Under the pieces are notes generated by a model. It was not told the DNA's origin and searched no databases. It was given only the letters and a program-made list of their open reading frames with translations. 64,000 nt of DNA from a virus, in IMG/VR virus record IMGVR_UViG_3300037104_000592, positions 18,377-82,376 of that record; one strand, 5' to 3'. Positions 2 to 43,334 of the stretch are shown in pieces (within the stretch, counting starts at the first letter, position 1; every line of letters starts with the position of its first letter). The position numbers and the translations under genes are program-made.

Positions 2-3000
2 GCAGATGAATTAATTCCAAAAAAAGATGTTGTAGACACAACTGATGATTTAGTTGTAAAGTCATATAATGTTAAATCTGCTGTAGGTAATAAAGCTCCA
101 GATCATTTATTTATAAAAAGACAAATGGATTTTAAAACAAATCTAAAGCATGATATGACTAATTCATTTAAGACATTAGAAACTAAAGAGATTCCATTAA
201 AAATTGAAAAAATGGAAATTACAGATAAACCACTTAAAAAGAATGAAATAATGAAATCAGATTTAAGTTTAGTTAAGGTTTCATTAAAAGATGAATTTGG
301 AAAAAAACATAATGTAACAATTGAAATTCCAAAAATTGATCCTAATTCAGGAACGTTTAGAGTAAATGGGAGGACCAAGTGCTTAGTTAATCAAATAGTA
401 TTATGTCCAATAACATTTTTAAAACCATATGACTCAAAATTTGAAAGTTCATATTCTACGTTTCATATTAGAAGTAAACGAACAAAGAGAATGAATTATT
501 TAGAAATTTATATGGGTTCTTTCAAAAATTTACCTTTATTAATATTGTTAACATATAGTTTTGGATTTGATGAAACAATGAAACAATATGATATAAAGTA
601 TGAAATAAAAACAGAAAAACCAAAAAAGACTGAAAAGTTTGCATGTAAAATAAATGCAACCGAATATATTTACTTTGAAAATATTAATACAGAACTAAAA
701 CAAGAATTGATTACATCATTTATAAATGAAGGTATAGATAAATATGATATAAAACATAAATTTGGAACTAAAGAATATTTAAATGATTTGATTATAAAAA
801 TCACTGGAAGAGTTAATTCTACATTTCTTTTAAATGCAAACCTTGAAAATATTATTGACCCAGTTGCAAAACAAGTTTTAATAAATAAAGGACTTCCTCA
901 TGAGTTGAAATATATAATGCAATATATGGCTACCAAAGTTGTATCAGGTTTTTCTGAAAGTAGAAATGATTTAACAAATCAAAGAATTAGAGGATCAGAA
1001 GTAATAGTTAATTTAGCTCAAAAACAAATTTTATCTGCATATACTGTATATAAAGAACAGGTTTTAGCAGGTAATAAAAATGCAGAATTTTTAGTTAATC
1101 CAACAAAAGTTTTGAGTGCATTTTTAAATTCAGAAATTGTTGTTGATATGGAATATGCAAACCCAATTGAAGAAATGGCGGTTATGACTAGAATATCTCC
1201 AGTTGGAAAATCTATTGGTGGTATTGCAAATGCAAATGCAATTCAATCAAGCGCTAGAAATGTAAGTCCATCTTATTTTGGGAATATTGATCCTCTTGAT
1301 ACACCAGAAGGACCAAATGTTGGAATAACTCAACAATTAGCTTTAGGAGCAATGGTATCATCTTCAAGAGGATTATTTACTACTAAAAAAATATCAAATG
1401 AAGAAGGATCTGGAATTTTATCTACTTCTACTTGTATGATTCCATTTATTGAAAATAATGATGGAAATAGAATTCAATTTGCAGCTAATCAATCGAGACA
1501 AATGTTACCATTAAAAAACCCTCAACCTCCAGTTATAAGATCTGGGTATGAATCTGTTTTAACGAATGTCTTATCTGATAATTTTATTAAAAAAGTTCCT
1601 GAGAGATCTAAAGTTTTATCAGTAACAAGTGACCATATAATATTAGTTGGAAAATCAGGAAAAAAATATGATATTAATTTAACTCCTATTCATTTAAGAT
1701 CTGGAACTGGTCGAGATACTTTAAGTATTTTTAAAACTAAAGTTGTTAAAGGTCAAATTGTAAATGAAGGACAAATTTTAGCAGAAGGAAGTTGTATAAA
1801 AGATGGAGCAATTTCTTTAGGTAGAACTTTATGTGTTGGGTATATGCCCTATAAAGGATATAATTTTGAAGATGGAATTATTATAAATGAAAAATTAGCA
1901 ACAAATGATATGTTAACATCTTTGCATGGGTTAGAAGAAGAAGTTTTAATTTCTGAAAAAGATAGAGTTTTATTTATAGCAAATATTGGAGATAGACTTA
2001 AAAAAGGAGAACCATTACTAAGAAAAACTATTGGAGAAATTGAGCAATTAATTGGATTTGAAGATATTGAAGATGATACAACATCAGTATATGGTCAGGA
2101 TTTAATTAAGACGAGTCCAGGTGGTCTTATTGTTGATCTTGAAGTTTTTTGTAATGTTAGTGATGAAAAATTTCCAAAATTAAAATTTTATATTGATAGA
2201 ACAAGAAAAAGATATGGTGTTTCTGCAGATCAAAAATTTGTAGTAAAGGGAGTATCTATAAAAGGAGCTCTTGTAAGATTTAAAATAGAACAAGAATTAA
2301 AAATTGAAACTGGAGATAAATTAACTAATAGATTTGGAGCTAAAGGAATCATTACATTAATAGAAAAAGATGATTTAATGCCAAGAACTCCGTGGGGAGA
2401 TAGATTAGATGTTATATTAAATCCTTTGGGAATTATTGGTAGAATGAATCTTGGACAATTATATGAGTTATATTGTGGATTAATTTCTAGAGCTTTAGTT
2501 ATTAAATTACTTTCTTCTAAAAATAAAAAGCAAGCGCTAGATGTAATGACAAATGTTTTATCAAAATTAGATACATCTAAAAATAAAGAATATACAAATA
2601 AAATGGTTGGATCTATTGCAAAATTAAGCGATAGACAATTTTCATTATTAATTACTCAGATAAAAGATAGTGGTTTTATTCCTATTATAATTCCACCATT
2701 TAAAGCTCCCAAACCTAATCAAATAATGGAAGCTTTAAAAATGTTAGATTTGAAACCAGGATACCATTTGTATCTTCCTGAGTTTGGAATTAAAACACAC
2801 GATGCAGTTCCTGTTGGATATATGTATGTTTCAAAACTAGAACATATTGGAGAGATGAAAATACATGGTAGATCAACTGGACCTGTTGTTGGAAAAACAT
2901 CACAACCAACACAAGGAAAAAGTAGAGAAGGTGGTCAGAGATTAGGAGAGTCAGATGTTCATGTTTTAATTGGATATAATTGCCCAAAACTATTATCAGA

Positions 3001-3157
3001 ATTAATGGGACCATTGTCTGACGATACTATTAGTAAAAATGAAATGATTTCTGATATAATTCAAACAGGAGAAACAACCTTCAGAGTTCCTAAAATTTCT
3101 CCTGCTAAAGATTTATTAAACGCATATTTTATTTCGTTAATGTTGGAGAATAAATAG
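2..3157 (+). CDS. rpoB: DNA-directed RNA polymerase beta subunit-like, copy 1 (5'-truncated by window edge)
   Basis: Beta motifs GNIDPLDTPEGPNVG, IPFIENNDGNR..ANQSRQ, GYNFEDGI, GDKLTNRFGAKG, DVILNPLGIIGRMNLGQ, KLEH..KIHGRSTGP, GGQRLGE. Frame is open from base 2 (ADELIPKK...), so the true start lies upstream of the ATG at 125. Confidence 0.93.
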   Translation, partial: ADELIPKKDVVDTTDDLVVKSYNVKSAVGNKAPDHLFIKRQMDFKTNLKHDMTNSFKTLETKEIPLKIEKMEITDKPLKKNEIMKSDLSLVKVSLKDEFGKKHNVTIEIPKIDPNSGTFRVNGRTKCLVNQIVLCPITFLKPYDSKFESSYSTFHIRSKRTKRMNYLEIYMGSFKNLPLLILLTYSFGFDETMKQYDIKYEIKTEKPKKTEKFACKINATEYIYFENINTELKQELITSFINEGIDKYDIKHKFGTKEYLNDLIIKITGRVNSTFLLNANLENIIDPVAKQVLINKGLPHELKYIMQYMATKVVSGFSESRNDLTNQRIRGSEVIVNLAQKQILSAYTVYKEQVLAGNKNAEFLVNPTKVLSAFLNSEIVVDMEYANPIEEMAVMTRISPVGKSIGGIANANAIQSSARNVSPSYFGNIDPLDTPEGPNVGITQQLALGAMVSSSRGLFTTKKISNEEGSGILSTSTCMIPFIENNDGNRIQFAANQSRQMLPLKNPQPPVIRSGYESVLTNVLSDNFIKKVPERSKVLSVTSDHIILVGKSGKKYDINLTPIHLRSGTGRDTLSIFKTKVVKGQIVNEGQILAEGSCIKDGAISLGRTLCVGYMPYKGYNFEDGIIINEKLATNDMLTSLHGLEEEVLISEKDRVLFIANIGDRLKKGEPLLRKTIGEIEQLIGFEDIEDDTTSVYGQDLIKTSPGGLIVDLEVFCNVSDEKFPKLKFYIDRTRKRYGVSADQKFVVKGVSIKGALVRFKIEQELKIETGDKLTNRFGAKGIITLIEKDDLMPRTPWGDRLDVILNPLGIIGRMNLGQLYELYCGLISRALVIKLLSSKNKKQALDVMTNVLSKLDTSKNKEYTNKMVGSIAKLSDRQFSLLITQIKDSGFIPIIIPPFKAPKPNQIMEALKMLDLKPGYHLYLPEFGIKTHDAVPVGYMYVSKLEHIGEMKIHGRSTGPVVGKTSQPTQGKSREGGQRLGESDVHVLIGYNCPKLLSELMGPLSDDTISKNEMISDIIQTGETTFRVPKISPAKDLLNAYFISLMLENK

Positions 3158-27528: not shown

Positions 27529-27867
27529 ATGGGATATGTAAGAAGATCAGAAAGAATTAAACATTTGAAACAGTATAAAGATATTAGATTAATTTTTAAG
27601 AATTTATTTGATACTCCAAATTTTACAGATAATATTGTATATGGCGCAAGCTTTAAATGGTATTTTAATTCATTTTTAAGAAACAAATGGGGAAATGAAA
27701 AAAAAATAAAAGATAATGTTAAAAATTTTCTAGAAAATAATTTGCGAGGTATAGGGTTTATTTTTGAAGTTAAATTATTACCTCATCCTTGGGCATCAAG
27801 ATCAGGAATGTCTCCTAGTTTTAGAATTTTGACGAGGTTATATAATGGACCAAATTCAAATAGTTAG
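27529..27867 (+). CDS. hypothetical protein
   Basis: 112-aa ORF. Confidence 0.5.
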   Translation: MGYVRRSERIKHLKQYKDIRLIFKNLFDTPNFTDNIVYGASFKWYFNSFLRNKWGNEKKIKDNVKNFLENNLRGIGFIFEVKLLPHPWASRSGMSPSFRILTRLYNGPNSNS

Positions 27868-28870
27868 TTGGCTTCTTACACGAAGATGTAATCTTAGATG
27901 TTCATATTGTAGAATATCTAGAGATTATAAAGCACCTCCAGAATATAATTCAATGAAATATTTTCATCAATTAGAAATGAAAACGGAAGATATTTTAGAA
28001 ACATTAAGAAGATTAAAGCTTCATAATCCTAATGTTTTCCATATCTTTTACGGAGGAGAACCAACCCTTAGAACAGACTTATCAGAAATAATAGGATATT
28101 GTCATAAGGAATATATTAATTATACCATCATTTCAAATATGACTGATAGACCCAAAGAAGTAATTGATAACTTAATTAAAGAACACGGATTCCTTCAAGG
28201 ATTAACAGCGAGTATAGACCCTATTATCATGGAAGAATATTCAAATGAGGATAGATGGAGAAAAACTTGGGGAGGATATAGCTTAAGAAAATATAGAGGA
28301 AAAGTAAAGGATTTAGTTGCTGAGATAACTGTAAGTAATGATAATCTAAAGAATTTATATTCATTAGTTAGAAAATTAACAGATGATGGAATAAATTCTG
28401 ATATTACTTTTGTTGATATAGCTAAATCTCCATATTATGATTTCTCTAATGTTACAGATGATGATTTATTAGTTTATAAATCAGCCGAATTAAGAGATAT
28501 TATAAATAGAATAATTGGTGAAAAATTAGATGTTCATATGAGAGATATTCTTTTACCTGCTATTTATGATATTCTTCCTTCTGAATTAGATTGTAAGATT
28601 GAAGATGATGTTCATAATATAACAATTGATGCAGATGGAAGTATTCGATTATGTTTAAGAATTTGCGGAATTATAACTCCTGGATCTTTTAGGACTTCAA
28701 ACTTTTTAGATGAAAATGGAAAAATTCATGAAAGTTTAAAAGATGTATTAGGTCAAGATAAAAAAAGACTATGTCAAAAATGTAATTGGACCTGCCAGAT
28801 TATGAGTTCTTTATTATCAAAAAATGATGGAAATATTGAAAGTCTTCTTCATTCTGAAAGGAGATTATAA
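27845..28870 (+). CDS. radical SAM protein with C-terminal Cys cluster (SPASM/twitch-like)
   Basis: RCNLRCSYC, GGEP, IDADG..RLC, CQKCNWTC. Confidence 0.85.
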   Translation: MDQIQIVSWLLTRRCNLRCSYCRISRDYKAPPEYNSMKYFHQLEMKTEDILETLRRLKLHNPNVFHIFYGGEPTLRTDLSEIIGYCHKEYINYTIISNMTDRPKEVIDNLIKEHGFLQGLTASIDPIIMEEYSNEDRWRKTWGGYSLRKYRGKVKDLVAEITVSNDNLKNLYSLVRKLTDDGINSDITFVDIAKSPYYDFSNVTDDDLLVYKSAELRDIINRIIGEKLDVHMRDILLPAIYDILPSELDCKIEDDVHNITIDADGSIRLCLRICGIITPGSFRTSNFLDENGKIHESLKDVLGQDKKRLCQKCNWTCQIMSSLLSKNDGNIESLLHSERRL

Positions 28871-29617: not shown

Positions 29618-29992
29618 ATGACAATGTTAGAAGAAATTCTAGAAAAAACAAAAACTTTACCCACTGATGATCAATTAAAACAAATTTGTGATCAAATACA
29701 AAAAGAAGAAGAAGAAAAATTTAGAGATTATTTAGGAGAGATGCCAAAAGGACCCAATATGTTTCTAGCAATTTGGGTTCCTGGAATTACAGGAAAAGAA
29801 TTATGTTATGTATGTTTAGAAAGAGAATTTCCTGGTAAATATTTAGTAACTCTTTGGTCTAAATTATCCGAAAAAAGTATAATAAAAAAGAAATCATTAA
29901 TAAGAACAAAAGTTTGGGAAGTTAAAGAAAGCGCTCCAAAAAAGATTTTAGAAGAATATGCTAAAATACTTAAGTTCATGAGAGGAAAATAA
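29618..29992 (+). CDS. hypothetical protein
   Basis: TAATG overlap with E2-like gene. Confidence 0.65.
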   Translation: MTMLEEILEKTKTLPTDDQLKQICDQIQKEEEEKFRDYLGEMPKGPNMFLAIWVPGITGKELCYVCLEREFPGKYLVTLWSKLSEKSIIKKKSLIRTKVWEVKESAPKKILEEYAKILKFMRGK

Positions 29993-32616
29993 TGGCCGAG
30001 CAAATATCACCTATATTTATTGATGAAAATACAATTAAAGAAATATTTATAAATAGAGATTATACAAGACTCATAAGATCTTCTTATGATTCTAAAGCTA
30101 GAGATGTAAAATTGGATGAAACTAAACCAAAACTTGTAACATCTAAGATGAGAACAATAGATTTTTTTAATAAATTAAATAGTACAGATAGTAAACTAAC
30201 AATTCTTCCTAGAAATTGTAGATTTACTAATAAAATAACTGATAGAACAATATACGTAATTGAAGATCCTCCTATGTTAAGAACAGTTAAATTTAATATA
30301 GGATTAGAATCTGAAATTGAAAATTTAAGGAATAATGGTTTACTTACAAAGTTTGGATATGAAAATTTTCTAAATGATAATCCAAGTCCACCTTATAAAA
30401 TACAACTTTCATTCCCGTATGTTATTTATATTATAACTTTTGGGCAACATAATGAATTTTCAAATATGAAGTTATTTTATAGATTGCATCCTTTAACTGG
30501 AATAAAAGATTATTTACTCACAAGTAATTTATTGAATGTAGATTCTAACGGTTCTGTATGTTTAGGTCCACAAAATTCAAAAGATGTTACAGAAGTAAGT
30601 GATAAAGTAGATAATATTATAAATTCTTTTTGGGGAAATGAGTTTAATAATGATATTACACATTCATATTTATCATATTCTAATCAAAGAGAAATTTCTA
30701 CAATTCTAGCGTGGAAATATTATTCGAAAGTTGATCCAATGTTTATATTTGATGTGGAGTGGATAAAAAATACATATAATTTAGACTCATTTTTAAATTT
30801 TAAAAATTCTGGTGATGATATAAGAAGTTGTGAAAATATAATGTATAAACTTGAAGAGTATATTTTATATGATAAAGAAGATGAAGGACAAAAAGTTGTT
30901 GATAGAAGATATACTTATACCAGTCTTCCATTATTTGAAGATGAACAAAAGGGTTCTGACTATCTTGTAATTGGAGATGAAATTATATTTGAAGGGAAAA
31001 AATATTTTATATATGAAATAGTTCATGAATCAGATGGAAAAATTATTGTTTCATTGGAAGACGAGAATGGAAAGTTAATTTATAAAAAATATAATACAGA
31101 TTTTAGAGACAAAATAAGAAAAGAAACTTTGAAAAATAAAGAGCTTACAGAAATTAAAATTGATGGTCTTACTGTAAAAAAAGGAACCGTTTTAGAAGCA
31201 TTTGATGGTTATAAAAAGAGATTAAAACATGTACAAAAAATAAGAAAGACCAGAGATGGAAAAATAGAAATACAATGTGAAAAAAGTTTCTACATGATTG
31301 AAGATGGGAGTTTAGCTGGAGTAAAAGTTTTTGATATTAATAATTTAACTATTTCTAATGGTTTAAAAATTGTTAATGGAAATAAGTACATGATTTTTAA
31401 TAATATAACTAATCCTATATTTGATATTCAAACTGGAATTTTTACAGATTTAAAAGTAACTAACGACACTGTCTACTATAATTTTAAATATGTCAGACCT
31501 GCTGATAAAAAAGAATCTACAATTAATTATAGTGGAGATACTCAAACAACTGAAGTTTTTGATTATGATGAAAAACTTTTAAATAATTCCATGTTTCCTT
31601 TCTTTAGACTTGGAAAAATGATCATATCAAATATTGATAAAGATTATAAATTTCATATAATTAAAGGAAAAGGTATTGGGGTTACATCTTCTTCGGGTAA
31701 TGTAATTGATAGATATGATTTTGGGAGATATTTAAATTCTGATAAAGATATAAAGGAGAAAATTTTAAAAGATAATAAATTAAGAATTCCATCATTTGAT
31801 TTGGATATAGAATTTGATATTGGTGATAGAGTAGTTATAGCTGATTATTCTAAATCTTTAAAATATATTACTACAATAAGAACTATAACTGGATTTAAAA
31901 TTGCAGGGGATAATCTTTTTGTAGATACTGTAGATGAAAATAATATACCAGAAAGTACTCCTTATATAAATTTTAAAATTTATGATAAAAGTTATATTTA
32001 TTCAAAATCTCCTAAAGTTAATATTGGGTTAATTAGAAAAATAATAGATAATGATTTATTCAAAAGAGGAACTAAAGTAAGACCTAAGGTAAAAGGAATT
32101 TCATCATTTAAGAAAAAAGATGTTCATGAAATAGTTGGACTAATTACAGATACTGGGTCTAAACCTATTATTCTATGTTCAAATGGTCATACAATTTGGT
32201 GTGATGAAAAATCACTTGAAAATTTTGAACTTATAGATAAGAAATCTAAATTATATAATAAATCAAAATTAACAGAAATATTAGAAAATGAAAAAATATA
32301 TTGTAAATTTCAATCTGGAGATTTAGCTGATATTAAAGATGTATATGATAGAACTTCATATGAAGATTCAATTCATCTTTGCGGTATAGGAGCAAATAAT
32401 AGAATAATATTTAAAATTTTAAATTCTTTAAATGTATATGGTTCATATAATAGATCTGGAAGAAGAATTATAAGTCAACAATATCAAACTATTCCTATGC
32501 CAAGATATTTACCAACAACTGAATTAATAAGAGGGATTGGAGTTATTCCTAATTATCATGGTTGGTTTACTATTTCAAATAATTCGCTGTTTAAAATACA
32601 ATTGGAGAAAATATAA
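29992..32616 (+). CDS. prokaryotic E2-like (Prok-E2 D / PRTRC-B type) domain protein with long beta-rich C-terminal extension
   Basis: LSFPYVIY...LFY...L....LLNVDSNGSVCLG...INSFW..EFNND (Cys about residue 190); first gene of E2-JAB-E1-Ubl operon. Confidence 0.75.
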   Translation: MAEQISPIFIDENTIKEIFINRDYTRLIRSSYDSKARDVKLDETKPKLVTSKMRTIDFFNKLNSTDSKLTILPRNCRFTNKITDRTIYVIEDPPMLRTVKFNIGLESEIENLRNNGLLTKFGYENFLNDNPSPPYKIQLSFPYVIYIITFGQHNEFSNMKLFYRLHPLTGIKDYLLTSNLLNVDSNGSVCLGPQNSKDVTEVSDKVDNIINSFWGNEFNNDITHSYLSYSNQREISTILAWKYYSKVDPMFIFDVEWIKNTYNLDSFLNFKNSGDDIRSCENIMYKLEEYILYDKEDEGQKVVDRRYTYTSLPLFEDEQKGSDYLVIGDEIIFEGKKYFIYEIVHESDGKIIVSLEDENGKLIYKKYNTDFRDKIRKETLKNKELTEIKIDGLTVKKGTVLEAFDGYKKRLKHVQKIRKTRDGKIEIQCEKSFYMIEDGSLAGVKVFDINNLTISNGLKIVNGNKYMIFNNITNPIFDIQTGIFTDLKVTNDTVYYNFKYVRPADKKESTINYSGDTQTTEVFDYDEKLLNNSMFPFFRLGKMIISNIDKDYKFHIIKGKGIGVTSSSGNVIDRYDFGRYLNSDKDIKEKILKDNKLRIPSFDLDIEFDIGDRVVIADYSKSLKYITTIRTITGFKIAGDNLFVDTVDENNIPESTPYINFKIYDKSYIYSKSPKVNIGLIRKIIDNDLFKRGTKVRPKVKGISSFKKKDVHEIVGLITDTGSKPIILCSNGHTIWCDEKSLENFELIDKKSKLYNKSKLTEILENEKIYCKFQSGDLADIKDVYDRTSYEDSIHLCGIGANNRIIFKILNSLNVYGSYNRSGRRIISQQYQTIPMPRYLPTTELIRGIGVIPNYHGWFTISNNSLFKIQLEKI

Positions 32617-33644
32617 TGTTTAAAATAGTTTGTTTAGATGGAACACAAAAAATACCAGAAGATGATATTTGTTATATTATAGCTAAGGGTGGGGTATATC
32701 TTAAGAAAAAAGTTGGAATGATTGAATCTTTAGCTCCAGTAAAGAATATTTCAATTTTAGAAGATGTTCAACCATATGCTAAAATGAATATTCCAAAAAT
32801 CTCTGGTGAAGATTTTGGAAAAGTTATGAGTTTTTTCAAAAAAGTTTATGAAGAACATAAATCTGAAGCAATAGTTCTTTTATATTATAATCCAAAAAAA
32901 GCAACTTATAAATTTTATGTTCCACATCAAAAAGTAAGTGGTGCTGGAGTTGATTATGTAAAAGGAGTTTCTATAGCAAATCATATTCAAGTAGGAACTA
33001 TTCATAGTCATGCTAATTTTTCAGCATTTCATTCTGGAACAGATGATAGTGATGAAGAACATTTTGATGGAATTCATATAACAATTGGTGATAACACCGA
33101 TGCTTTTCCATCTATCACTGCATCAATTGTTATAAATGGAACCAGATTTACAATAAATCCTATTGATTATGTAACAAAAATGGAAATTGTAGAATATACT
33201 AATTATTTTCCTCATATGTTCAGACCATCTTTCACAGAAATAAATGGAGTCAGAGAATATAAATCTAATGTAAAAACTCAACTTGGATATCAGCTAATGA
33301 TTTCAGACCAAGATAAAAAATTTAATGAAGCATGGTTAAAAATGATTGAGAATGTTAGACCTACTATAACTAATATCCCATTTTATACACAAGAACACTA
33401 TTTGGATTTATTTGATCCTAATAGAAAAGATAAGCAAGACAGATCTTATAGATACACATGGACTCCAGGTTCTACTAAAAAGAATAATCGTCCTGCTTAT
33501 AATCCTTGTGAAAGTTGTGTTTTTAAAAAATATAAATCAGACGATGAAAGAAAATCAATAACACAAGAGGACATACAACAAAGTTTCTCTGATATTTGGG
33601 ATGATTATAATGTGTATGATGATCCTTGGGGAAATTTAATATGA
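32616..33644 (+). CDS. JAB/JAMM metallopeptidase (deubiquitinase-like)
   Basis: SEA (catalytic Glu), GTIHSHANFSAFHSGTDDSDE = HxH-x7-S-x2-D, GIHITIG. Confidence 0.9.
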   Translation: MFKIVCLDGTQKIPEDDICYIIAKGGVYLKKKVGMIESLAPVKNISILEDVQPYAKMNIPKISGEDFGKVMSFFKKVYEEHKSEAIVLLYYNPKKATYKFYVPHQKVSGAGVDYVKGVSIANHIQVGTIHSHANFSAFHSGTDDSDEEHFDGIHITIGDNTDAFPSITASIVINGTRFTINPIDYVTKMEIVEYTNYFPHMFRPSFTEINGVREYKSNVKTQLGYQLMISDQDKKFNEAWLKMIENVRPTITNIPFYTQEHYLDLFDPNRKDKQDRSYRYTWTPGSTKKNNRPAYNPCESCVFKKYKSDDERKSITQEDIQQSFSDIWDDYNVYDDPWGNLI

Positions 33645-34345
33645 GATTTAATGATATTTCTATAGTGGGTTTGGGTGGAATAGGCTCAATTTTAAGTAAT
33701 ACTATTTCAAGATTTATAAGTAACGATGCTAGAGAAAATGATCCAAGACAAATTATAAATTTAATTGATGGAGATTATTATGAAGAAAAAAACTTAGTTA
33801 GACAAGAATTTTTAAGATTTGGAAATAAAGCAGAATCTAAATTAAATGAATTAAGACCAAAATTTAATAATATTGAATTTAAAGATTATCCATATTTTAT
33901 AGATGATATAACTATTTCTAGAATAATTAAAGATAAAGATTTAGTATTTTTAGCAGTTGATAATCATAAAACAAGAAAATTAGTAAGTGATTATGCAAAA
34001 AAACTAAATGATATAATTATAATTTCAGGAGGAAATGAGCTAGAAGATGGTAATGTTCAATTGTATATTAGAAAAGATGGAGAAGATGTTACTCCATCTT
34101 TAACTGATTATCATCCAGAAATCAGAAACCCAATTGATAAATTACCAAATGAAATGAGCTGCGAAGAGTTACAAAACTCTGAACCACAACTATATTTTAC
34201 AAATTTAGGAGTGGCAACTTTTATGGCTTTTGCATTTTACAATGTCCTAAAAGGCTCAAATAATTTTTCAGAAGTATATTTTGATATGAACACAATGAAA
34301 GCTGATTCAAAAACAAGAAACTTAAAAAAAGAAAAAGGAGAGTAA
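33641..34345 (+). CDS. E1 / ThiF-family ubiquitin-like activating enzyme
   Basis: VGLGGIGS, IDGD..E.KNLVRQ, NKA, AVDN..TR, SGGN, candidate catalytic Cys in MSCEE. Confidence 0.9.
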   Translation: MRFNDISIVGLGGIGSILSNTISRFISNDARENDPRQIINLIDGDYYEEKNLVRQEFLRFGNKAESKLNELRPKFNNIEFKDYPYFIDDITISRIIKDKDLVFLAVDNHKTRKLVSDYAKKLNDIIIISGGNELEDGNVQLYIRKDGEDVTPSLTDYHPEIRNPIDKLPNEMSCEELQNSEPQLYFTNLGVATFMAFAFYNVLKGSNNFSEVYFDMNTMKADSKTRNLKKEKGE

Positions 34346-34354
34346 GGATTTATT

Positions 34355-34828
34355 ATGGCTAAAAAAGTATATTCGGCAGAGGAACTTTATAACAAAACAG
34401 TATCAGAACTTCGTGAAATGTGTGTTAAGTTTGGGATTACGGGTATGAGTAAAAGGAGAAAAGATGAGATTGTAGATGCTCTTTGTGATTATTATGAAGA
34501 TACAGCACCTGAACCCCAAGTTAAAACACCAGTTTCTTCTTCATCTATCGTTTCTATGAATGCTCAACTTTCGAGTTATAGAAACCCCGATTCAAAAAAT
34601 GATGACGATAAATACATCACCAATATTTTTGTGTCTTGCGGCGCAGCTTCTGGAAACTTCCCAGTTGTTGGAAAGAAAGTTGGAGCAGTTGCTGAATTCC
34701 TAAGAGAAGTTCTTAATATCGACCGTTTAAGTGTTGGAGTTGTGAATGGTGAAGAAGTTGAAGATAGTTATCTTCTTGCATCTGGAGATTCTCTTGAATT
34801 TCTAAAAGCAGGTGGTCGTAAAGGTTAA
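34355..34828 (+). CDS. ubiquitin-like (beta-grasp) protein with N-terminal Rho-N/HEH domain
   Basis: N-term L..KTVSELREMC..FGITGMSK.RKDEIVDAL; C-term VVNGEEVEDSYLLASGDSLEFLKAGGRKG ending in Gly. Confidence 0.8.
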   Translation: MAKKVYSAEELYNKTVSELREMCVKFGITGMSKRRKDEIVDALCDYYEDTAPEPQVKTPVSSSSIVSMNAQLSSYRNPDSKNDDDKYITNIFVSCGAASGNFPVVGKKVGAVAEFLREVLNIDRLSVGVVNGEEVEDSYLLASGDSLEFLKAGGRKG

Positions 34829-34873: not shown

Positions 34874-35392
34874 ATGAAAGAAACACTAGATAAGCTTACA
34901 GATGAAGGTGTAAAGCAACTAAAATATTATTATAAGAAAACAAGGCTCTTTGGAAATATTTGCACTGTTTGTTTACTTATTGGAGAAAATAATGAACTTA
35001 TTTCAAGAGGAGTTTCTATTTGTTCATTATTAGATTCTCATAAAAAATCAACAGGAAAAAATATTGCTTTAGGAAGAGCAATAAAAGCTCTAAAAAATAA
35101 GAAAACAACAGATGAAATAAATCCAAATAGAGATTCTTTAACACATTGGATGTATACTAAAAATATAAATAAAAAAGATCCTTATTTTAGCGATATGTTT
35201 GAAGAAATTAAATATAATTGCTTTTCTACAAAACCTTTAAAAATTAATAAAGAAGAAGTTTTAAAAGTTGAAATACCAATGGATTTTCCATTGTATGCAA
35301 CTGTATCATTATTTACACATAAATCTTCATTTAAACCAACTCCTACGGATGAAGAAGTTAAAATAATTGAAAAAAGAAAAAAGTTAGATTAA
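34874..35392 (+). CDS. phage protein with Gp49-like (T.C..G.S.CS..D....G..IA..RA) motif
   Basis: CTVCLL...SRGVSICSLLDSHKKSTGKNIALGRA. Confidence 0.5.
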   Translation: MKETLDKLTDEGVKQLKYYYKKTRLFGNICTVCLLIGENNELISRGVSICSLLDSHKKSTGKNIALGRAIKALKNKKTTDEINPNRDSLTHWMYTKNINKKDPYFSDMFEEIKYNCFSTKPLKINKEEVLKVEIPMDFPLYATVSLFTHKSSFKPTPTDEEVKIIEKRKKLD

Positions 35393-35401
35393 ATTTTTAG
35401 A

Positions 35402-35569
35402 AAAATTGGGGTGGATAATCATACTGAATAAGTGGTTTTGAAACCTGGTACTAAGAAAGAGTGCGAACTCTGGGGCAGGAACCCAGATAGAAGCTTTAGA
35501 TGGCTCGATAGCTGACTGATAGATATTGCACCCAAAGTGCCTTATCCAGTATTATTCCACCCCAATTTT
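35402..35569 (+). ncRNA. candidate structured ncRNA (about 170 nt, multibranch)
   Basis: About 30-bp closing helix (aaaattggggtggataatcatactgaataag / cttatccagtattattccaccccaatttt) enclosing hairpins, including gagt-GCGA-actc; GC-rich relative to genome. Confidence 0.6.
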
Positions 35570-35581
35570 AGGAGATTAAAA

Positions 35582-35880: not shown

Positions 35881-36756
35881 GTGTATAAAGATATAGCGAT
35901 TATAGGTTTAGGAAGTATAGGAGGTTTTTTATCGAGCAATATCATAAACATAGACACAATAAAATCTTTGGTTTTAGTTGATTATGATAGAGTAGAACTG
36001 GAAAATTTGAAAAATTCAATTTATAAAAAATCAGATGTTGGGAAATTTAAAGTTGAATGTGTATCTTCCGTTATAAAATTGTTCAATAGTGAAATAAATA
36101 TTACAGCAATAAAAGATAGATATATAGAGGGAAAAACAAAAATTCCAAAATGCGATTTAGTTATTGATTGTAGAGATTTTGTTTATGATAGAGGTTCAGA
36201 AATAAATATGAGATTATATATCTCTTCTAGACATTTAATAATTGATTGTAGAAAAGATATAAAATATCAATTACACTATGAAGGAAAATATATAGATACA
36301 TTAACAAAATCTGATATTTATTCTGCTACAGCTAATTTGTCAAGATTGATATTTAATGAAGAATTAAATGATATAATTAAAAACAATTTAGTTCATACAA
36401 TAGATATGGATGAATGCTTAAAATCAAGTGAAGAAACTTTAAATAACTATAATAATAAAATGGAAGTTGTTATGGATTATCATAAAAAGAATGATTGTTT
36501 CATAAATTTTCTTGAAAATGCAGAAAATATAATAAATTTCAATAAAAAAAGTGAAGTGAAAATTTGTCTAAACGATAAAAGATTTCCATTATCTACTAAA
36601 ATAATACCAAAAAATTATATTCAAAATGTAAATGACTTAAGTAAAAATTTTTTATCAATAATACCAGCTAAAAATCATAGTAGTTATATAGTTAAATCAA
36701 TTATAGAAAAAAATATTTGTTATGTAATTTTAATACCAGAAACAGGGGCTGCTTAA
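35881..36756 (+). CDS. second, divergent ThiF/E1-like protein
   Basis: IIGLGSIG, VDYDRVE.ENL, VGKFKV, IDCRD; lacks the RQ of NLxRQ. Confidence 0.75.
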   Translation: MYKDIAIIGLGSIGGFLSSNIINIDTIKSLVLVDYDRVELENLKNSIYKKSDVGKFKVECVSSVIKLFNSEINITAIKDRYIEGKTKIPKCDLVIDCRDFVYDRGSEINMRLYISSRHLIIDCRKDIKYQLHYEGKYIDTLTKSDIYSATANLSRLIFNEELNDIIKNNLVHTIDMDECLKSSEETLNNYNNKMEVVMDYHKKNDCFINFLENAENIINFNKKSEVKICLNDKRFPLSTKIIPKNYIQNVNDLSKNFLSIIPAKNHSSYIVKSIIEKNICYVILIPETGAA

Positions 36757-36758
36757 AA

Positions 36759-37100
36759 ATGAGCATAAAAACTATTACTATTGAGAAAAAAATAACACCA
36801 AGAATTGCTATTTATAAACGAGATGCCTTTGATATTTTAGAGGTTGATCCAGAATTCATGATAAATAAATATGAGATAACTTTAAAAGAATCAAAAGTAG
36901 TTTCTTTAAAATTATTTGCTTTACATCCAAATTGTAATCCAGATACTGGAGAATTTTGTTTAGGTCCTGACATAATTGAAAATCAAGCAAATGAATATCT
37001 TTTAGAAAAAGTTATTCCTTATACACTATCAGTATATAATTTAGATAGTTGTTATTTCAGGCCAAAAAATGGAAAAGTAAAATATGGAATAATGAAATGA
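36759..37100 (+). CDS. small E2/UBC-like conjugating enzyme
   Basis: FALHPNCNPDTGEFCLG matches E2 HPN-x5/6-G-x-(I)C-L; downstream L..YNLDS. Confidence 0.7.
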   Translation: MSIKTITIEKKITPRIAIYKRDAFDILEVDPEFMINKYEITLKESKVVSLKLFALHPNCNPDTGEFCLGPDIIENQANEYLLEKVIPYTLSVYNLDSCYFRPKNGKVKYGIMK

Positions 37101-37550: not shown

Positions 37551-40247
37551 ATGCCAAATATATTAAACATAGATAAGTTTTGTGAAAACTTAAAAGGAAT
37601 TTCTTCTTTAAAAGCTATTGATAAAAGAAAATTCCATCCAAATGGATTATTCTCAGAGCAGATATTTGGTCCTTTAAAAAATTATACATGTCAATGTGGA
37701 ATATATCATGGAGTATCCAATGCAGGTGGAACTTGCGAAATATGTGGAGTTGATATTGTTCATAGTATTGAGAGAAGAAGAAGATTTGGAAAAATTGTTC
37801 TACCTTTGAAAGTTGTTAATCCAATTTTTTATGATTTGGTTATAAAATTGGGTGGAAATATATTAAAAAAGAATATAGATGAGTTAATGAAAAATGAAAA
37901 AAGTTATTTATATAAAGATGAAAATGATTATATTGTAGAAACTAAGTTACCCCATCCTACTAATACTCAAATATGGGATAGATCTGAAGCAATTTTTGAA
38001 TTAGTAAATGGACTTGCTACAGAGTTGGGAAATAATGAAAGTGGAATGGGAATTAAAGAATGGGAATTAATAAAAAATAATATTGATTGTTTATTTATTA
38101 AAAATGTTATAGTGTTACCACCTGATTTAAGACCTGCTGCAAAAGGAATGGATAAGAACGATCAACGAATGGATAAGATAAATAGATTTTATGTTCAAAT
38201 TCTTACAAAAAAAGAAAGTATGAGAAATACTCCTATAAATATAGAAACTGATAAAAGCGTATATTACAATTTTTTCAAGCAATTACAGAGAGATGTTAAT
38301 GAATTATATGAACATATTATTTCAAAAATATCCAAGAAAGAAGGTTTAATAAGAGGAAATATTTTAGGGAAGAGAATAGATTTCTCAGGTAGAGCTGTTA
38401 TTGTTCCAGAACCTTCTTTGAAATTAGATGAATGTAGTCTTCCATATTTAATGGTTTTAGAATTATTTAAAATTCAATTATCTAAAAAACTTATAGATTT
38501 AAAACAGTTTAAATTATTAAATGAAGCAATTGATTTTGTTGATAGGTGTATAGAATTATCAGATCCTATTTTATTTAATATTTGTCAAGACATAGTTAAA
38601 AATGAAGTTTGTTTACTTAATAGACAACCAACTTTACATAGATTAGGAATGATTGGATTTAAGATAAAAACTTCTTTAGATAAAGTTATAAAGATACACC
38701 CCCTAGTTTGTCCAGGATTTAATTCGGATTTTGATGGAGATCAAATGGCAGTATATATTCCGATTTCTGATAGGACAAAAGCAGAAGTTAGAGAAAAATT
38801 TATGTCAACTAAAAATTTATCTAATCCTTCAAATGGAAGTTTAATTACTATTCCAAGTCAGGATATGGTTTTAGGAATTTATATGTTGACTACATCATCA
38901 TTTGGAGAAGTTGAATATAAAGGTGAAAAAATAACAATTGGATCCAAAATATTCAATGAATGTTTACCAAGTGATTATCCATTAATAAATGGTTCAATAA
39001 ATAATAAGATCTTAAAAGAAACATTAAATGATATTAAAAATAAATATCCAGATGAAATAGTAACTGAAGTATTAGATAAAATAAAAGAAGTTGGTTTTAG
39101 ATTTTCAACAATATATGGAACCTCAATGTCTTTGAAGCATATTTCAATTGATGGAATTGATAAAATTAAAAATGATATTTATTCATTGGATAATATTCAA
39201 GATCAATTATCTGCAATCTCTAGTAAAAAAACTGAAGATATAATGAGGAAAAACTTTAAATATTCTTATCTTATAGATTCAGGTGCAAGAGGAAAATGGG
39301 ATCAGGTAAGACAAATAATTTTAACAAGAGGATATATTTCTAATTTTCAAGGAGATATTCTCCCAACCCCAATAAAGCATAATTTAATAGAAGGTTTAGA
39401 TCAACAAGAGTTTTTTAATTCAACATACGGTTGTAGAAAAGGATTATTAGATGTTGCATTAAATACAGGTGATTCTGGATATTTATCTAGAAAATTAATT
39501 TTCACTTGTGTTAACTTAATAATTGGGGAAGAAGATGATTGTGGAACAACAGATTATCTTGATATATTAGTTACTAGTGAAAAGAAAGCAAAAATGTTAA
39601 TTGGAAGATATTATTTAAATGATGGAAATTTATCTGAAATAACAGTTGAAAATCATAAAGGATTTGTTGGAAAATTAATTCAACTTAGAAGTCCTATTTT
39701 CTGTAAAAATGAAGAACTATGTCATAAATGTTATGGAAACTTATATAAAAATTTACATAGTAAGTTTGTAGGAATTATAGCTGCTCAAGCATGTGGAGAA
39801 GCTGGAGTTCAGCTAATTTTGAGAACATTCCATACAAGTGGTGTAGCAAAGATTTCGGAAGATCAAACAGATATGAGACAGTCAGATATCGTAAGTGATT
39901 TATCTTCTGTATCAAAAGTTCTTCATAATAAAGATAAAAAGGAATATAAAGAATTAGTTTCTAATTTATTTGACTTATATATTATAAATAGAGATATTCA
40001 CCATATTCATTTTGAATGTATAATTTCTCAAATGATGTGGAAAGGTTTTAGAAAATGGAGACTTCTACCAAATAGAGATAAAATTTCTTCAGACTATTAT
40101 TCAATTCAAACAGTTCCTGAAAAAGAAAGTTGGATTGTAGGATTAGCTTTCTCAAATCCAAAAAACCATATTTTAAAAGGAATTGTTCAAGATGGAAATT
40201 ATAAAGGAATTTTTGATAAAATAATGCTAGGAGAAATACCTAGATAA
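37551..40247 (+). CDS. rpoC: DNA-directed RNA polymerase beta' subunit (compact, 898 aa)
   Basis: GLFSEQIFGP..CQCG..CEICG, LPPDLRP, R.NILGKRIDFSGRAVI, NRQPTLHR, catalytic NSDFDGDQM, PSQDM, SGARG, RKGL.D.A..T..SGYL.RKL, AAQ..GE..QL..RTFH. Confidence 0.96.
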   Translation: MPNILNIDKFCENLKGISSLKAIDKRKFHPNGLFSEQIFGPLKNYTCQCGIYHGVSNAGGTCEICGVDIVHSIERRRRFGKIVLPLKVVNPIFYDLVIKLGGNILKKNIDELMKNEKSYLYKDENDYIVETKLPHPTNTQIWDRSEAIFELVNGLATELGNNESGMGIKEWELIKNNIDCLFIKNVIVLPPDLRPAAKGMDKNDQRMDKINRFYVQILTKKESMRNTPINIETDKSVYYNFFKQLQRDVNELYEHIISKISKKEGLIRGNILGKRIDFSGRAVIVPEPSLKLDECSLPYLMVLELFKIQLSKKLIDLKQFKLLNEAIDFVDRCIELSDPILFNICQDIVKNEVCLLNRQPTLHRLGMIGFKIKTSLDKVIKIHPLVCPGFNSDFDGDQMAVYIPISDRTKAEVREKFMSTKNLSNPSNGSLITIPSQDMVLGIYMLTTSSFGEVEYKGEKITIGSKIFNECLPSDYPLINGSINNKILKETLNDIKNKYPDEIVTEVLDKIKEVGFRFSTIYGTSMSLKHISIDGIDKIKNDIYSLDNIQDQLSAISSKKTEDIMRKNFKYSYLIDSGARGKWDQVRQIILTRGYISNFQGDILPTPIKHNLIEGLDQQEFFNSTYGCRKGLLDVALNTGDSGYLSRKLIFTCVNLIIGEEDDCGTTDYLDILVTSEKKAKMLIGRYYLNDGNLSEITVENHKGFVGKLIQLRSPIFCKNEELCHKCYGNLYKNLHSKFVGIIAAQACGEAGVQLILRTFHTSGVAKISEDQTDMRQSDIVSDLSSVSKVLHNKDKKEYKELVSNLFDLYIINRDIHHIHFECIISQMMWKGFRKWRLLPNRDKISSDYYSIQTVPEKESWIVGLAFSNPKNHILKGIVQDGNYKGIFDKIMLGEIPR

Positions 40248-40268
40248 AAAATTTTAACACCTCAGGAG

Positions 40269-43200
40269 GTGAAATTAGTGGATATAATAAATCCAAACTA
40301 TAAAATAAATGAAGAAAACAATATATTTTCAATAAGAGAAAAAGAATATAACTTAATAAAAGATAATGTAAGAGAAATTTTAAAAGCAGCAGAAGAAGTT
40401 GGTTTTTTAGTTAATGAACTTGGAATAACGGAATCTAAATTCTCATCTGGAGAATTACAGAAAACATTAAAGAAAAATTTAGTTATAAAATTAAGACGAG
40501 GATCTTCTGACATAGACTTATCTATGGCTATTCCAAAATTAATTGATAAAAATTATGTTATAATTGGAGGAAGGAAAAAAGTTCCTTTATTTCAATTATT
40601 TGATATTCCTGTAGTTACAAGAGGAAAAACTATAAAAATCAGAACCAATGTAGCAAGTATGATGATAGTAGATGAAAAAGAATTTCCATTTATTCATCTA
40701 TCAATTTTTAATAAAAAAGTTCCATTGTCCTTAGTCATATTTGCTTACTATGGTTTAGAAGAAACAAAAAATAAATTTAGTTTAGATAAAATAGAAATTC
40801 CTGAAATAAAAACTTTACATGATAAATTAATGACAGATTTAAAAGATTTTTATGAAGGATCAGAAGGGTTTACAAAAGAAGAATTTATCAAAGAAGTTGG
40901 TAAATTCTTCTCAACAAATGATGCAAAAAATAAAGGTGAAGATTTAATTTATGCTCTAGATCTTATTTTAAAGACCGATATAATGTCAGCTAAATTTTTC
41001 AAAACTGGAAACATTTTAGATGAAATTGTTGAGGTTATTAAATTAGGTGGTTATGATGATACTGATTTAAGAAATAAAAGAGTAAGGTGTTTTGAATATG
41101 TAATTTTAGCTAAAGTATCTAAAGCAATATTTGATCTATGTATGTCAAATAGATCAACCACAAGACAAGCTAAATTTAATGTAAATTCCAGTCAAATTTT
41201 ATCAGATTGTAATGTTTCAGATATTGTTCAATTTGATTTTTCAATAAATCCAATTGAACAATTAACAAAATTAACAAGAACAAGTTTGGTTGGTCCTGGT
41301 GGGTTTGACAGAGAAAATGTTCCAGAATATCTAAGAGATATTAATCCATCAATGTTTGGAAGAATTTGTCCTGTTGATACTCCTGATAGAGATAACTGTG
41401 GAATATTACAAAGTTTATTACCAAATACACCATTAGATGAAAATTTAAAATTTACAGATGAATCATTAGAAAAATCACCTATTTCTATTCCAGTTTCTTT
41501 AGTTCCATTTTTAGAACATGATGATCAAACTAGATTACAAATGGCATCATCACAAATGAGACAGTCTATTATGTTATCAGAGTTTGAAGTTCCTATGGTT
41601 CAATCGGGATGTGAAGGGTTATATACAGATCATAGTAGCTTTATAAAAAAGGCTAGAAAAAATGGAAAAGTATCTTATGTAGATCAGTTTAATATAATTA
41701 TTGTTTATGATGATAATGATTATGATATTTTTGATGTATCAAATAGAAGAATATATGTTGAAAATATGGATGTTATGAACATATATGTTTCTAAAGGAGA
41801 TAAAGTTAAAAAAGGAACGATTATTGCTGAAAGTAATTATTGTAAAGATGGAAAAATAAATTTTGGAAGAAATTTATTAACAGCTGTTATGCCATATTAT
41901 GGATATAATTATGAGGATGCAATTGTTATTTCTGATAGATTAGTAAAAGAAAATATTTTTACATCTATTCATTATATTGATTTATCATTTGTATTACCAG
42001 CAGATAAAATTTTACTTAGTTTAGAAAAAGATAAATATAAACCCCTTCCAACTCCAAAACCATATATAGATTTGGAAGAAGGAATTACAGAAGAAGAAAA
42101 AAGAAAAAGAAAAAGAGAATTAGTTTTAAAGGGTCAACATTATGCTATAATTAAACAAATTCCATCTACTACTTTGGATTACAATTCTATTTTCGAGGAA
42201 GAGATACCTTTAACTGCTAAAAGAGATATTTTAGTAACTGAAGTAAATATTTATCCTAATAAATGGAATGACTCAATTCCAAAATTTAATGAATGGATAG
42301 ATAAAAAATCTAAAGAACAAATAGATCAAGAGAATAAATTTAAGAGAATTATTTATGAAAATCTACCAAAAAGAAATGCTGATCAATATATAAGAGATCA
42401 TAATCTAGATAGATTTTCTCATATTGGAAAGTTTAAAATTAAAGGTGAAGAAATAAAAGGAACTTTAATTGAGATGTTTGGTTTTTATGTTAGACCAATT
42501 ACTATTGGAGATAAGATTGGAAACAGACATGGAAATAAAGGTGTAATTTCAAAAATAGTTCCACATAATCTTATGCCTAAATTAGAAGATGGAAGAAATG
42601 TTGATATATGTATAAATCCTTTAGGTGTTCCTTCGAGAATGAATGTTGGTCAAATATTTGAGTTACATTCTGCAATGTCTTTATATGATTTAAAAAAGAC
42701 TATGTTAAAAATGATAAAAGAAGGAAAATCCAAAGACGAATTGAAAACATATATTTTAAATTATATTAAAATCATTGATAATACAGAAAATAATTGGTAT
42801 TATAAACAGTTTGAAAAAAATATAAAAACTATAAATAAAAAGTTTATAGAAGATCTTACTATTCTTGCTCCACCATTTGAATCATCAACTAGAAAAATGA
42901 TATTAGATGCTTGTGAATATACAAATACCAAAACTGAATTTAAAGTATACGAACCATATGAAAAAATTGATATTCATGATATAGCTTGTGGGTTTATATA
43001 TTTCTTTAGAATGGTTCACATAGCTGAAAATAGATTAGCAGCTAGAGGGATTGGTTCATATGGAAGAAGAACAATGCAACCAGGTGGTGGTCGTAAACAC
43101 AAAGGAGGACAACGTTGTGGAGAGATGGAAATCGCAGCAATCATTGCTCATGGTGGACTTGAAAATCTATATGAAACTTTAACAACCAAGTCAGATTGTA

Positions 43201-43334
43201 TAGATCTTAAAAATAAACATATTAAGCAAGAAATAGGATCAGATTTCTTTAGAGAAAAAGAAGGAGATATTATAAAACCTGAAGCAGTTCAGCTTTTAGA
43301 GAATTATCTAACTGTTTTGGGTATAGAAAAATAA
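40269..43334 (+). CDS. rpoB: DNA-directed RNA polymerase beta subunit-like, copy 2
   Basis: GPGG, GRICPVDTP, PFLEHDD..R..M...MRQ, GYNYEDAI, GDKIGNRHGNKG, NPLGVPSRMNVGQ, GGQRCGEME. Confidence 0.95.
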   Translation: MKLVDIINPNYKINEENNIFSIREKEYNLIKDNVREILKAAEEVGFLVNELGITESKFSSGELQKTLKKNLVIKLRRGSSDIDLSMAIPKLIDKNYVIIGGRKKVPLFQLFDIPVVTRGKTIKIRTNVASMMIVDEKEFPFIHLSIFNKKVPLSLVIFAYYGLEETKNKFSLDKIEIPEIKTLHDKLMTDLKDFYEGSEGFTKEEFIKEVGKFFSTNDAKNKGEDLIYALDLILKTDIMSAKFFKTGNILDEIVEVIKLGGYDDTDLRNKRVRCFEYVILAKVSKAIFDLCMSNRSTTRQAKFNVNSSQILSDCNVSDIVQFDFSINPIEQLTKLTRTSLVGPGGFDRENVPEYLRDINPSMFGRICPVDTPDRDNCGILQSLLPNTPLDENLKFTDESLEKSPISIPVSLVPFLEHDDQTRLQMASSQMRQSIMLSEFEVPMVQSGCEGLYTDHSSFIKKARKNGKVSYVDQFNIIIVYDDNDYDIFDVSNRRIYVENMDVMNIYVSKGDKVKKGTIIAESNYCKDGKINFGRNLLTAVMPYYGYNYEDAIVISDRLVKENIFTSIHYIDLSFVLPADKILLSLEKDKYKPLPTPKPYIDLEEGITEEEKRKRKRELVLKGQHYAIIKQIPSTTLDYNSIFEEEIPLTAKRDILVTEVNIYPNKWNDSIPKFNEWIDKKSKEQIDQENKFKRIIYENLPKRNADQYIRDHNLDRFSHIGKFKIKGEEIKGTLIEMFGFYVRPITIGDKIGNRHGNKGVISKIVPHNLMPKLEDGRNVDICINPLGVPSRMNVGQIFELHSAMSLYDLKKTMLKMIKEGKSKDELKTYILNYIKIIDNTENNWYYKQFEKNIKTINKKFIEDLTILAPPFESSTRKMILDACEYTNTKTEFKVYEPYEKIDIHDIACGFIYFFRMVHIAENRLAARGIGSYGRRTMQPGGGRKHKGGQRCGEMEIAAIIAHGGLENLYETLTTKSDCIDLKNKHIKQEIGSDFFREKEGDIIKPEAVQLLENYLTVLGIEK

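Follow-up and report, generated by a model that had tools for sequence, protein, structure and literature searches.

Whether a bacterial virus can own a complete ubiquitin-like protein-conjugation system, with the enzymes that attach a tag, the protease that removes it, and the tag itself, is the question raised by a run of adjacent genes in IMG/VR virus record IMGVR_UViG_3300037104_000592. The window analyzed here, a stretch of 64,000 nucleotides (nt), covers positions 18,377 to 82,376 of this 82,376-bp record, which CheckV rates as 26% complete. The genes encode a giant E2-like protein, a JAMM metalloprotease (JAB), a ThiF-type E1 (E1a), and a ubiquitin-like protein (Ubl), and a first-pass annotation, made from the letters of the window alone, had read them as a complete conjugation operon carried by a phage. 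In the present analysis, folds and families, conservation of catalytic residues, the C-terminal Gly pattern, conservation across the clade, single-copy status, and the phage context were computed. Relatives were collected by a degenerate-pattern scan of IMG/VR, which yielded 40 loci, and residue conservation was derived from 36 non-redundant relatives. Taken together, the cassette is likely to be a phage-owned ubiquitin-like protein-conjugation system, the chemical steps of which are all inferred.

The strongest single argument comes from the putative tag. The window Ubl consists of a Rho_N/HeH domain at residues 6–52 (Rho_N, E 6.7e-7), a linker, and a beta-grasp domain at about residues 66–157, with Gly157 as its end; Rho_N is matched by 27, TGS by 26, and ThiS by 21 of the 36 family members. 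In the structural model (predicted local distance difference test, pLDDT, 80.8), residues 6–52 match the Rho N-terminal domain (Z 7.7) and residues 96–157 match beta-grasp proteins only, namely MoaD (Z 5.6), ThiS (Z 4.5), and ubiquitin-like proteins (Z 4.3–5.0), and a Foldseek search of the PDB with this model returned nothing significant. A near-invariant S-C-G-A loop, residues 94–97, has low confidence in the model. The C-terminal domain accordingly models as the beta-grasp claimed at first pass, and the ending KAGGRKG is as described; the stress laid on its internal GG did not hold, since this pair is AG in most relatives. In the family consensus, LEFLKPAG[K/R]KG, only the final Gly is invariant, and the predicted attachment residue is the terminal Gly157, not the internal GG. 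About one-third of the loci encode 1–7 extra residues past this Gly, with a single Cys in many cases and VILTK, DRKGC, and IDVGL in others; such extra residues are the mark of a putative precursor that would need trimming by a protease. In type II Bil Ubls, a Gly that all of them share precedes up to nine non-conserved residues, which block adenylation until a deubiquitinase trims them off (Chambers et al.; PMC10557695). Because the phage protein combines an invariant Gly with tails as in type II Bil, it is best read as a candidate activated modifier that would be processed by the JAB protein.

The zinc site of that protease is well kept. Residues E84, H130, H132, S140, and D143 of JAB, which make up the pattern E...HxH-x7-S-x2-D, are each conserved in at least 90% of the 36 sequences, so that the JAMM motif (E...HSH-x7-S-x2-D) seen as intact in the window holds at every catalytic residue across the family. 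The best family match is PRTRC_A (E 2.3e-8), located in N-terminal residues 20–177, and the Prok-JAB match of the window protein (E 4e-4) reaches 20.7 bits, below the 25-bit cut-off. Two Cys residues forming a CxxC motif (C298 and C301) are also conserved in at least 90% of sequences, in a C-terminal half that is otherwise highly variable; protein length across the relatives ranges from about 300 to 620 amino acids.

E1a matches Pfam ThiF with E 5.9e-18 and 65.3 bits against a cut-off of 28.1 bits. Its best NCBIfam match is PRTRC_ThiF (E 5.6e-10), and likeness to ThiF and MoeB is found as well. Conserved across the relatives are the GxGGxG motif, D48xD50, N56..R59-Q60 (NLxRQ), K68, and D112-N113..R117. 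Cys179, within EMSCEE, is conserved in at least 90% of them, and the EMSC portion is retained in the Bacillus phage homologues described below. The earlier reading of this protein as an E1 with intact adenylation motifs and a candidate Cys (MSCEE) thus extends beyond the window to the whole set of relatives.

Taken alone, the giant E2-like protein of the window gives a sub-threshold Prok-E2_D match (E 0.014); among the relatives, Prok-E2_D is matched by 32 of 36, with a best E of 5.8e-7 and most scores under the 25-bit cut-off, and no second family turns up repeatedly. The NCBIfam model PRTRC_B matches 14 of the 36, and its single match in the 82-kb record falls on residues 175–218 of the E2-like protein. 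An AlphaFold2 model of residues 1–275, built on the alignment of the relatives, has a pLDDT of 88.9, and an exhaustive VIA-align search with it returned E2, UEV, and RWD chains for nearly all of the top 35 matches (Z 4.2–5.7; 79–128 residues aligned, spanning residues 67–259). Among the top matches are human and parasite E2s, Tsg101, Mms2, the bacterial BubB complex entry 9eav, and a CdnG-E2. A sequence profile search of the PDB with the E2 domain gave chance matches only. The assignment of a UBC-like fold is based on the uniformity of the VIA-align hit list together with the sequence evidence, and not on the Z values.

Canonical E2s carry an HPN...C motif with N-x7-C spacing. In the giant E2, Asn182 and Cys190 (N182-x7-C190) are invariant, first in 10 and then in 36 sequences, and in the model the pair sits in the loop joining the beta-meander to the following helix. 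Residues of about 67–259 are accordingly predicted to form a UBC-like domain with the Prok-E2_D/UBC superfamily fold and the Asn...Cys pair, in agreement with the first-pass description of a prokaryotic E2-like domain with its Cys at about position 190. The remainder of the protein, about residues 300–874, is an extension conserved in blocks (FxxGDxVV, FxKKD, DTGxxPxxLCSNGxTxW, and KxQxGD). An internal repeat, 300–375 against 601–675, was detected in it with an hhalign probability of 60.6%, which is modest support, and the extension is probably made of small beta-barrel modules.

In all 40 loci, the order is radical SAM gene, small genes, a gene for a 124-amino-acid (aa) protein, giant E2, JAB, E1a, Ubl, zero to two variable genes, a second ThiF-type gene (E1b), a gene for a small HPN...C protein (E2b), and RNA polymerase beta′, and giant E2 identity between loci is only 25–57%. 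Because the same order is kept in all 40 contigs, the cassette looks like a clade-wide core module that is vertically inherited and not accessory; the survey of related RNA polymerase-encoding phages that the first-pass annotation had proposed was thus carried out, and it found the operon conserved throughout. The predicted catalytic residues of the E2, JAB, and E1a are under purifying selection across the relatives, as judged from the alignments. Related genomes that are 78–79% complete contain one Ubl and one JAB each. In many loci the Ubl gene is directly followed by E1b, with a gap of 14–84 nt, and because of this adjacency the minimal block is taken to be E2-JAB-E1a-Ubl-E1b-E2b. With a profile of the E2 domain, 2431 cluster representatives among 1.84 billion were matched at E≤1e-3 and 290 at E≤1e-30, and the top matches were mostly proteins of 815–985 aa. 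A two-pattern scan of 185,579 species genomes yielded no relative of the giant E2, neither blastn with the cassette nor tblastn with the E2 extension and the Ubl matched GenBank phages, and a word-based homologue search for stand-alone E2 domains returned one fragment only.

Cultured relatives of part of the cassette do exist. ThiF genes roughly 30% identical to E1a are present in the Bacillus jumbo phages vB_BceM_WH1, Edson, and vB_BauM_KLEB27-3 (217–234 kb), all three of which contain an E2-JAB-E1 triad in the same order, with its genes annotated mostly as hypothetical; the depositors of KLEB27-3 annotated a PRTRC_A domain on the JAB. The clade profiles match the triad proteins with E values of about 1e-9 for the E2 domain, 1e-15 for the JAB, and 1e-25 for the E1. 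The arrangement is an independent recurrence of the E2-JAB-E1 order in these three cultured phages, the proteins being homologous and N-x6-C-W-G, HSH..S..D, and EMSC all present. Unlike in the window, the E2 of these phages is a stand-alone protein of 241–270 aa, and there is no second E1/E2 pair beside the triad. A profile search of the WH1 genome did not find a Ubl of this family, and none was identified next to the triads.

Within the window, the four genes are co-oriented and translationally coupled, as established from the open reading frame list and from reading the sequence (Table 1). The E2-like stop codon and the JAB start codon overlap in TAATG, and the JAB TGA and the E1a ATG at 33641 overlap in ATGA; an alternative TTG start at 33626 would give a 239-aa E1a. 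The Ubl ATG lies 9 nt past the E1a stop and is preceded by an AAGGAG-like Shine-Dalgarno site, and the E2b ATG lies 2 nt past the E1b stop. The adjacency, overlaps, and 9-nt spacing reported at first pass were therefore found in place. The notion of a self-contained four-gene operon was upheld for the genes and their coupling and not for the limits of the unit, which is flanked by a coupled upstream gene on one side and by E1b and the HPN...C protein on the other. Of the 38 loci extending far enough to show this position, 37 have the upstream gene immediately before that of the E2-like protein, and the 124-aa product has no family match in domain scans.

Table 1. Features of the conjugation cassette and its flanks in the window, and positions of the related triads in Bacillus jumbo phages.
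Feature	Position	Strand	Basis or remark
Conserved 124-aa protein	29618..29992	+	Stop overlaps E2-like ATG by one base
Giant E2-like protein, 874 aa	29992..32616	+	Prok-E2_D, PRTRC_B, AlphaFold2 model, invariant N182/C190
Cys190 codon, predicted E2 thioester cysteine	30559..30561	+	Invariant; 8 residues past Asn182
JAMM/MPN+ metalloprotease (JAB), 342 aa	32616..33644	+	PRTRC_A, Prok-JAB, conserved zinc-site residues
Compact ThiF-type E1 (E1a), 234 aa from ATG	33641..34345	+	Pfam ThiF above cut-off
Putative ubiquitin-like tag (Ubl), 157 aa	34355..34828	+	Rho_N, TGS/ThiS, model
Second ThiF-type protein (E1b), 291 aa	35881..36756	+	ThiF E 3.3e-17; Cap2-type models
Small HPN...C protein (E2b), 113 aa, candidate minimal E2	36759..37100	+	Invariant H56-P57-N58, C67
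E2-JAB-E1 triad, vB_BceM_WH1	L043 3611-6705		
E2-JAB-E1 triad, vB_BauM_KLEB27-3	L049 2636-5729		
E2-JAB-E1 triad, Edson	L050 2654-5738		

Contigs of 151–336 nt from four peat metatranscriptome libraries, belonging to four studies, map with at least 99% identity to the E2, JAB, E1a, and Ubl genes, which gives weak support to transcription of the cassette, DNA carry-over in RNA libraries being possible; parts of the window without such contigs carry no information on expression. Within the Ubl gene, contigs of three RNA libraries from three studies all end at position 34723, 105 nt before the stop. This shared end may reflect a strain polymorphism or an assembly break.

The following cycle is inferred from these data, in its chemistry at each step as well as in the direction of transfer, the part of the E2 extension as an adaptor, and the choice of targets. 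The JAMM protease would first trim the residues past Gly157 of the Rho_N/HeH and beta-grasp tag, where such residues are present. E1a would then adenylate Gly157, and Cys179 would probably take over the tag; Cys190 of the giant E2-like protein could next receive it in thioester form. The 600-residue C-terminal extension of that protein would pick the target lysines, acting as a built-in adaptor or E3. Finally, the JAMM protease may also detach the tag from its targets.

Several observations weigh against this reading. E1a has no separate catalytic-cysteine domain, and Cys179 is assigned as the probable thioester-accepting site by position alone. The fold match of the E2-like domain is moderate only (Z 4.2–5.7), with nothing significant in a Foldseek search of the PDB; the His-Pro of HPN is missing, with L-L-N at this place in the window protein; and neither the downstream His of Bil-type E2s nor any other invariant His occurs in the E2 domain among the 36 sequences. 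The beta-grasp domain is no closer to ubiquitin than to the sulfur carriers MoaD and ThiS. In addition, the clade is collinear over the entire region, and synteny is therefore no proof of a functional link of the cassette to E1b and E2b, to the upstream gene, or to the RNA polymerase genes. Finally, no experimental test of the PRTRC cassette, the closest known system, was found in the literature.

Operon types combining E1, E2, JAB, and Ubl genes were predicted by Iyer, Burroughs, and Aravind in 2006 (PMC1779556), and the phage cassette would work alike. No description of a phage-encoded E1/E2/JAB/Ubl system was found in the literature, and the jumbo-phage overview of Iyer et al. (2021) makes no mention of such a system.

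The kinship with PRTRC-type, Bil, and CBASS machineries that had been suggested for the locus was confirmed in one part only, namely as distant kinship to PRTRC. The PRTRC cassette (ParB-Related, ThiF-Related Cassette; NCBIfam TIGR03734-03742), carried by plasmids and integrative elements, provides the best or only specific matches of three enzymes: PRTRC_A for JAB, PRTRC_ThiF for E1a, and PRTRC_B for the E2. Both systems have separate small E1, E2, and JAB genes and reside on a mobile or viral replicon. All three matches are far below the curated cut-offs (33.9 against 101.8 bits for PRTRC_A, 39 against 144.75 bits for PRTRC_ThiF, and 10.9 against 131.45 bits for PRTRC_B, the last with E 1.4e-3 for its best member), and because the best specific matches are PRTRC ones and yet fall so short, the cassette enzymes are classed as distant PRTRC relatives and not as members. 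Furthermore, neither a ParB-related gene nor PRTRC_C gave a match at E≤1 in the 82-kb record, which represents 26% of the genome. Further differences from PRTRC are the fusion of the phage E2 to its 600-aa extension, the Rho_N/HeH domain of the tag, the second E1/E2-like pair, and the carrier itself, a jumbo phage of lytic type that encodes RNA polymerases of its own.

The four roles of Ubl, E2, JAB deubiquitinase, and E1 are shared with Bil (BilABCD, types I and II), as are the conserved Gly with a few non-conserved residues to trim and the occurrence of Ubls with N-terminal extra domains (PMC10557695). In Bil, however, the E1, BilD, combines several domains (IAD, AAD, and CYS) in a single chain, in contrast to the pair of separate small ThiF proteins encoded by the phage; the His that is conserved past the Cys of the Bil E2 (PMC10557695; PMC1779556) is missing from the giant E2; and Bil is encoded by bacteria and directed against phages. 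Membership in Bil was rejected, PADLOC giving only a marginal BilD match on E1b (E 0.035) and the E2 having no invariant His. Type II CBASS, with Cap2 (an E2-E1 fusion) and Cap3 (a JAB), shares the E1, E2, and JAB chemistry, and the Rossmann domain of E1b resembles Cap2-type models; by contrast, E1 and E2 are unfused in the phage, and a dedicated beta-grasp tag is present. Membership in CBASS was likewise rejected, since E1 and E2 are separate genes and a PADLOC scan of the eight cassette proteins gave no match to a CD-NTase model.

The second pair calls for a description of its own. E1b matches Pfam ThiF with 62.9 bits, and its residues 1–181 form a complete ThiF fold (Atlas structural match, TM 0.52). 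It keeps GxGxxG, DxD, Lys57, and DCRD, with Asn45 in place of the Arg of NLxRQ, and its Rossmann domain matches the PADLOC Cap2-type ‘E1-E2’ models (to E 3.8e-11) better than E1a does. No similarity to the Ubl, Pfam, or the PDB was found for its final 110 residues. The protein ends in a near-invariant E-T-G-A-A, encoded by the last five codons (36739–36753), and 33 of 41 sequences end in GAA; with its conserved Gly and the two small residues behind it, this end looks like that of a Ubl not yet trimmed. In E2b, H56-P57-N58 and C67 are invariant in 35 sequences, and PDB profile searches matched two E2 enzymes exactly at HPN...C, weakly (E 0.15 and 0.33). E2b has no Pfam family, its ESM Atlas model is poor (pLDDT 0.48) so that the structural matches of this model are meaningless, and hhalign found no similarity between its family and the giant-E2 domain, homology being not demonstrable at the sequence level. 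E2b is thus named here a candidate minimal E2.

E1b and the HPN...C protein would form a second arm, either serving the same single tag or activating another C-terminus. A tentative and rather doubtful extension of the conjugation reading is that one tag is served by two E1-E2 arms, one PRTRC-like (E1a and the giant E2) and the other made of a Cap2-like E1 and a eukaryote-style HPN...C mini-E2, by which an HeH nucleic-acid-binding handle would be put on chosen proteins, organizing phage transcription or replication. In such an arrangement, either E1a and E1b may pair up as a heterodimeric E1 of the eukaryotic kind, or E1b itself may be conjugated via its ...E-T-G-A-A tail.

As to what the conjugation system would do, a role in the infection cycle of the phage itself is favored over accessory counter-defence, the reason being that the lineage keeps the cassette as a fixed part of its core. 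Adjacency to the RNA polymerase genes is no argument for transcription control or for other roles, since the whole region is collinear across the clade. In the counter-defence alternative, the chemistry would be the same and would interfere with host Ubl-based immunity (Bil, type II CBASS, and Bub), perhaps by JAB-mediated removal of host conjugates, or through a phage tag and E2 that saturate or mask whatever the host system would target. The known bacterial E1/E2/JAB/Ubl systems are indeed anti-phage defences (PMC10557695; PMC10097602), and E1b matches Cap2-type E1 models best. This alternative is nonetheless unlikely: the cassette occupies a fixed position in 40 of 40 related contigs and has co-diverged to 25% identity, a core-like and not a patchy distribution, and PADLOC gave no Bil or Cap3 match for the JAB, E2, or Ubl.

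A role as a sulfur carrier system would explain the structural likeness of the beta-grasp domain to MoaD (Z 5.6) and ThiS, the Pfam ThiS matches in 21 of 36 relatives, and the resemblance of E1a to ThiF and MoeB. E1a would in that case adenylate and thiocarboxylate the beta-grasp protein, and the Cys-bearing ‘E2’ would be a persulfide relay, supplying, for example, a modification pathway with the radical SAM/SPASM enzyme, the gene for which is conserved four genes upstream. This linkage may be a matter of collinearity alone, and a UBC-fold protein with an invariant Cys alongside a JAMM protease is a hallmark of conjugation, while the tag has an extra HeH domain and precursor tails. Furthermore, rhodanese and MoaE were not found in the 82-kb record, in which control models matched, and ThiG was not searched; to this extent the lack of sulfur-transfer partners that was noted early on is borne out. 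A sulfur carrier role is thus regarded as very unlikely.

Least likely of all is a CBASS-like arrangement in which the enzymes activate another C-terminus, such as the ...E-T-G-A-A end of E1b, with the beta-grasp protein as a regulator or adaptor: E1b does have a near-invariant Gly with two small residues after it (GAA in 33 of 41), is nearer than E1a to Cap2-type E1 domains, and would have a precedent in type II CBASS, where the substrate is the C-terminus of an enzyme (PMC10097602, as cited in PMC10557695), but an invariant terminal Gly and precursor tails are found on the beta-grasp protein itself, which is encoded 9 nt behind E1a, E1b is without the Arg of NLxRQ, and the C-terminal domain of E1b, having no similarity found to the Ubl, Pfam, or the PDB, lends no fold support.

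Prokaryotic Ubl conjugation has, to our knowledge, been shown experimentally only for the CBASS Cap2/Cap3, Bil, and Bub defence systems and for archaeal SAMPs. On the favored reading as a phage-owned conjugation system, the virus itself would own writer, eraser, and tag as a core module across a very diverse jumbo-phage lineage. If it does conjugate, the cassette would be a bacterial-virus counterpart of the ubiquitin machinery in giant eukaryotic viruses and would give a first function to the PRTRC-type family. The enzymology would also be unusual, with a giant E2 containing a built-in adaptor, an HeH-bearing tag, and possibly a single tag served by two E1/E2 arms. Through their E2-JAB-E1 triad, the cultured Bacillus jumbo phages make part of this reading open to experiment now.

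The phage origin taken for granted at first pass is confirmed by the CheckV rating and by the terminase of the relatives. The record has a G+C content of 26%, with almost all genes on the + strand, and encodes two RNA polymerase beta subunits, one beta′ subunit, gyrase/topoisomerase subunits, an SbcC-like ATPase, and helicases. Related records of 244–248 kb (78–79% complete) contain Terminase_6N, the large-terminase N-domain, above the Pfam cut-off, and no Terminase_6C was found in them. Given these sizes and completeness values together with the terminase domain, the lineage consists of tailed jumbo phages of roughly 310 kb, among them the uncultured peat phage of the window. Near-identical DNA was found again in peat and permafrost metagenomes of several studies.

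Some neighboring features deserve mention. The RNA polymerase genes lie at window positions 2–3157 and 37551–43334, and, with two unsplit beta genes and one beta′ gene among them, they amount to more than one set of multisubunit RNA polymerase genes. The radical SAM/SPASM gene four genes upstream of the cassette (27845–28870) is kept in nearly all related loci; the best full-length match of its product is the PapB-type ranthipeptide maturase model (E 1.9e-13), with a score far below the cut-off. Between the Ubl and E1b genes, a structured intergenic element of 183 nt (35392–35574) has a predicted RNA fold of −58.1 kcal/mol (z −4.3), closed by a stem of about 14 bp that is formed by its own two ends. 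It has no Rfam match, is present as a single copy in the record, and is absent from the relatives L003 and L004. The deepest contig that one peat metatranscriptome library run gave on the window, 213 nt long, joins position 35574 back to 35392 and implies a circular assembly unit of 183 nt, for which a circular RNA, a small inserted element, or tandem duplication in a strain would each be a possible source.

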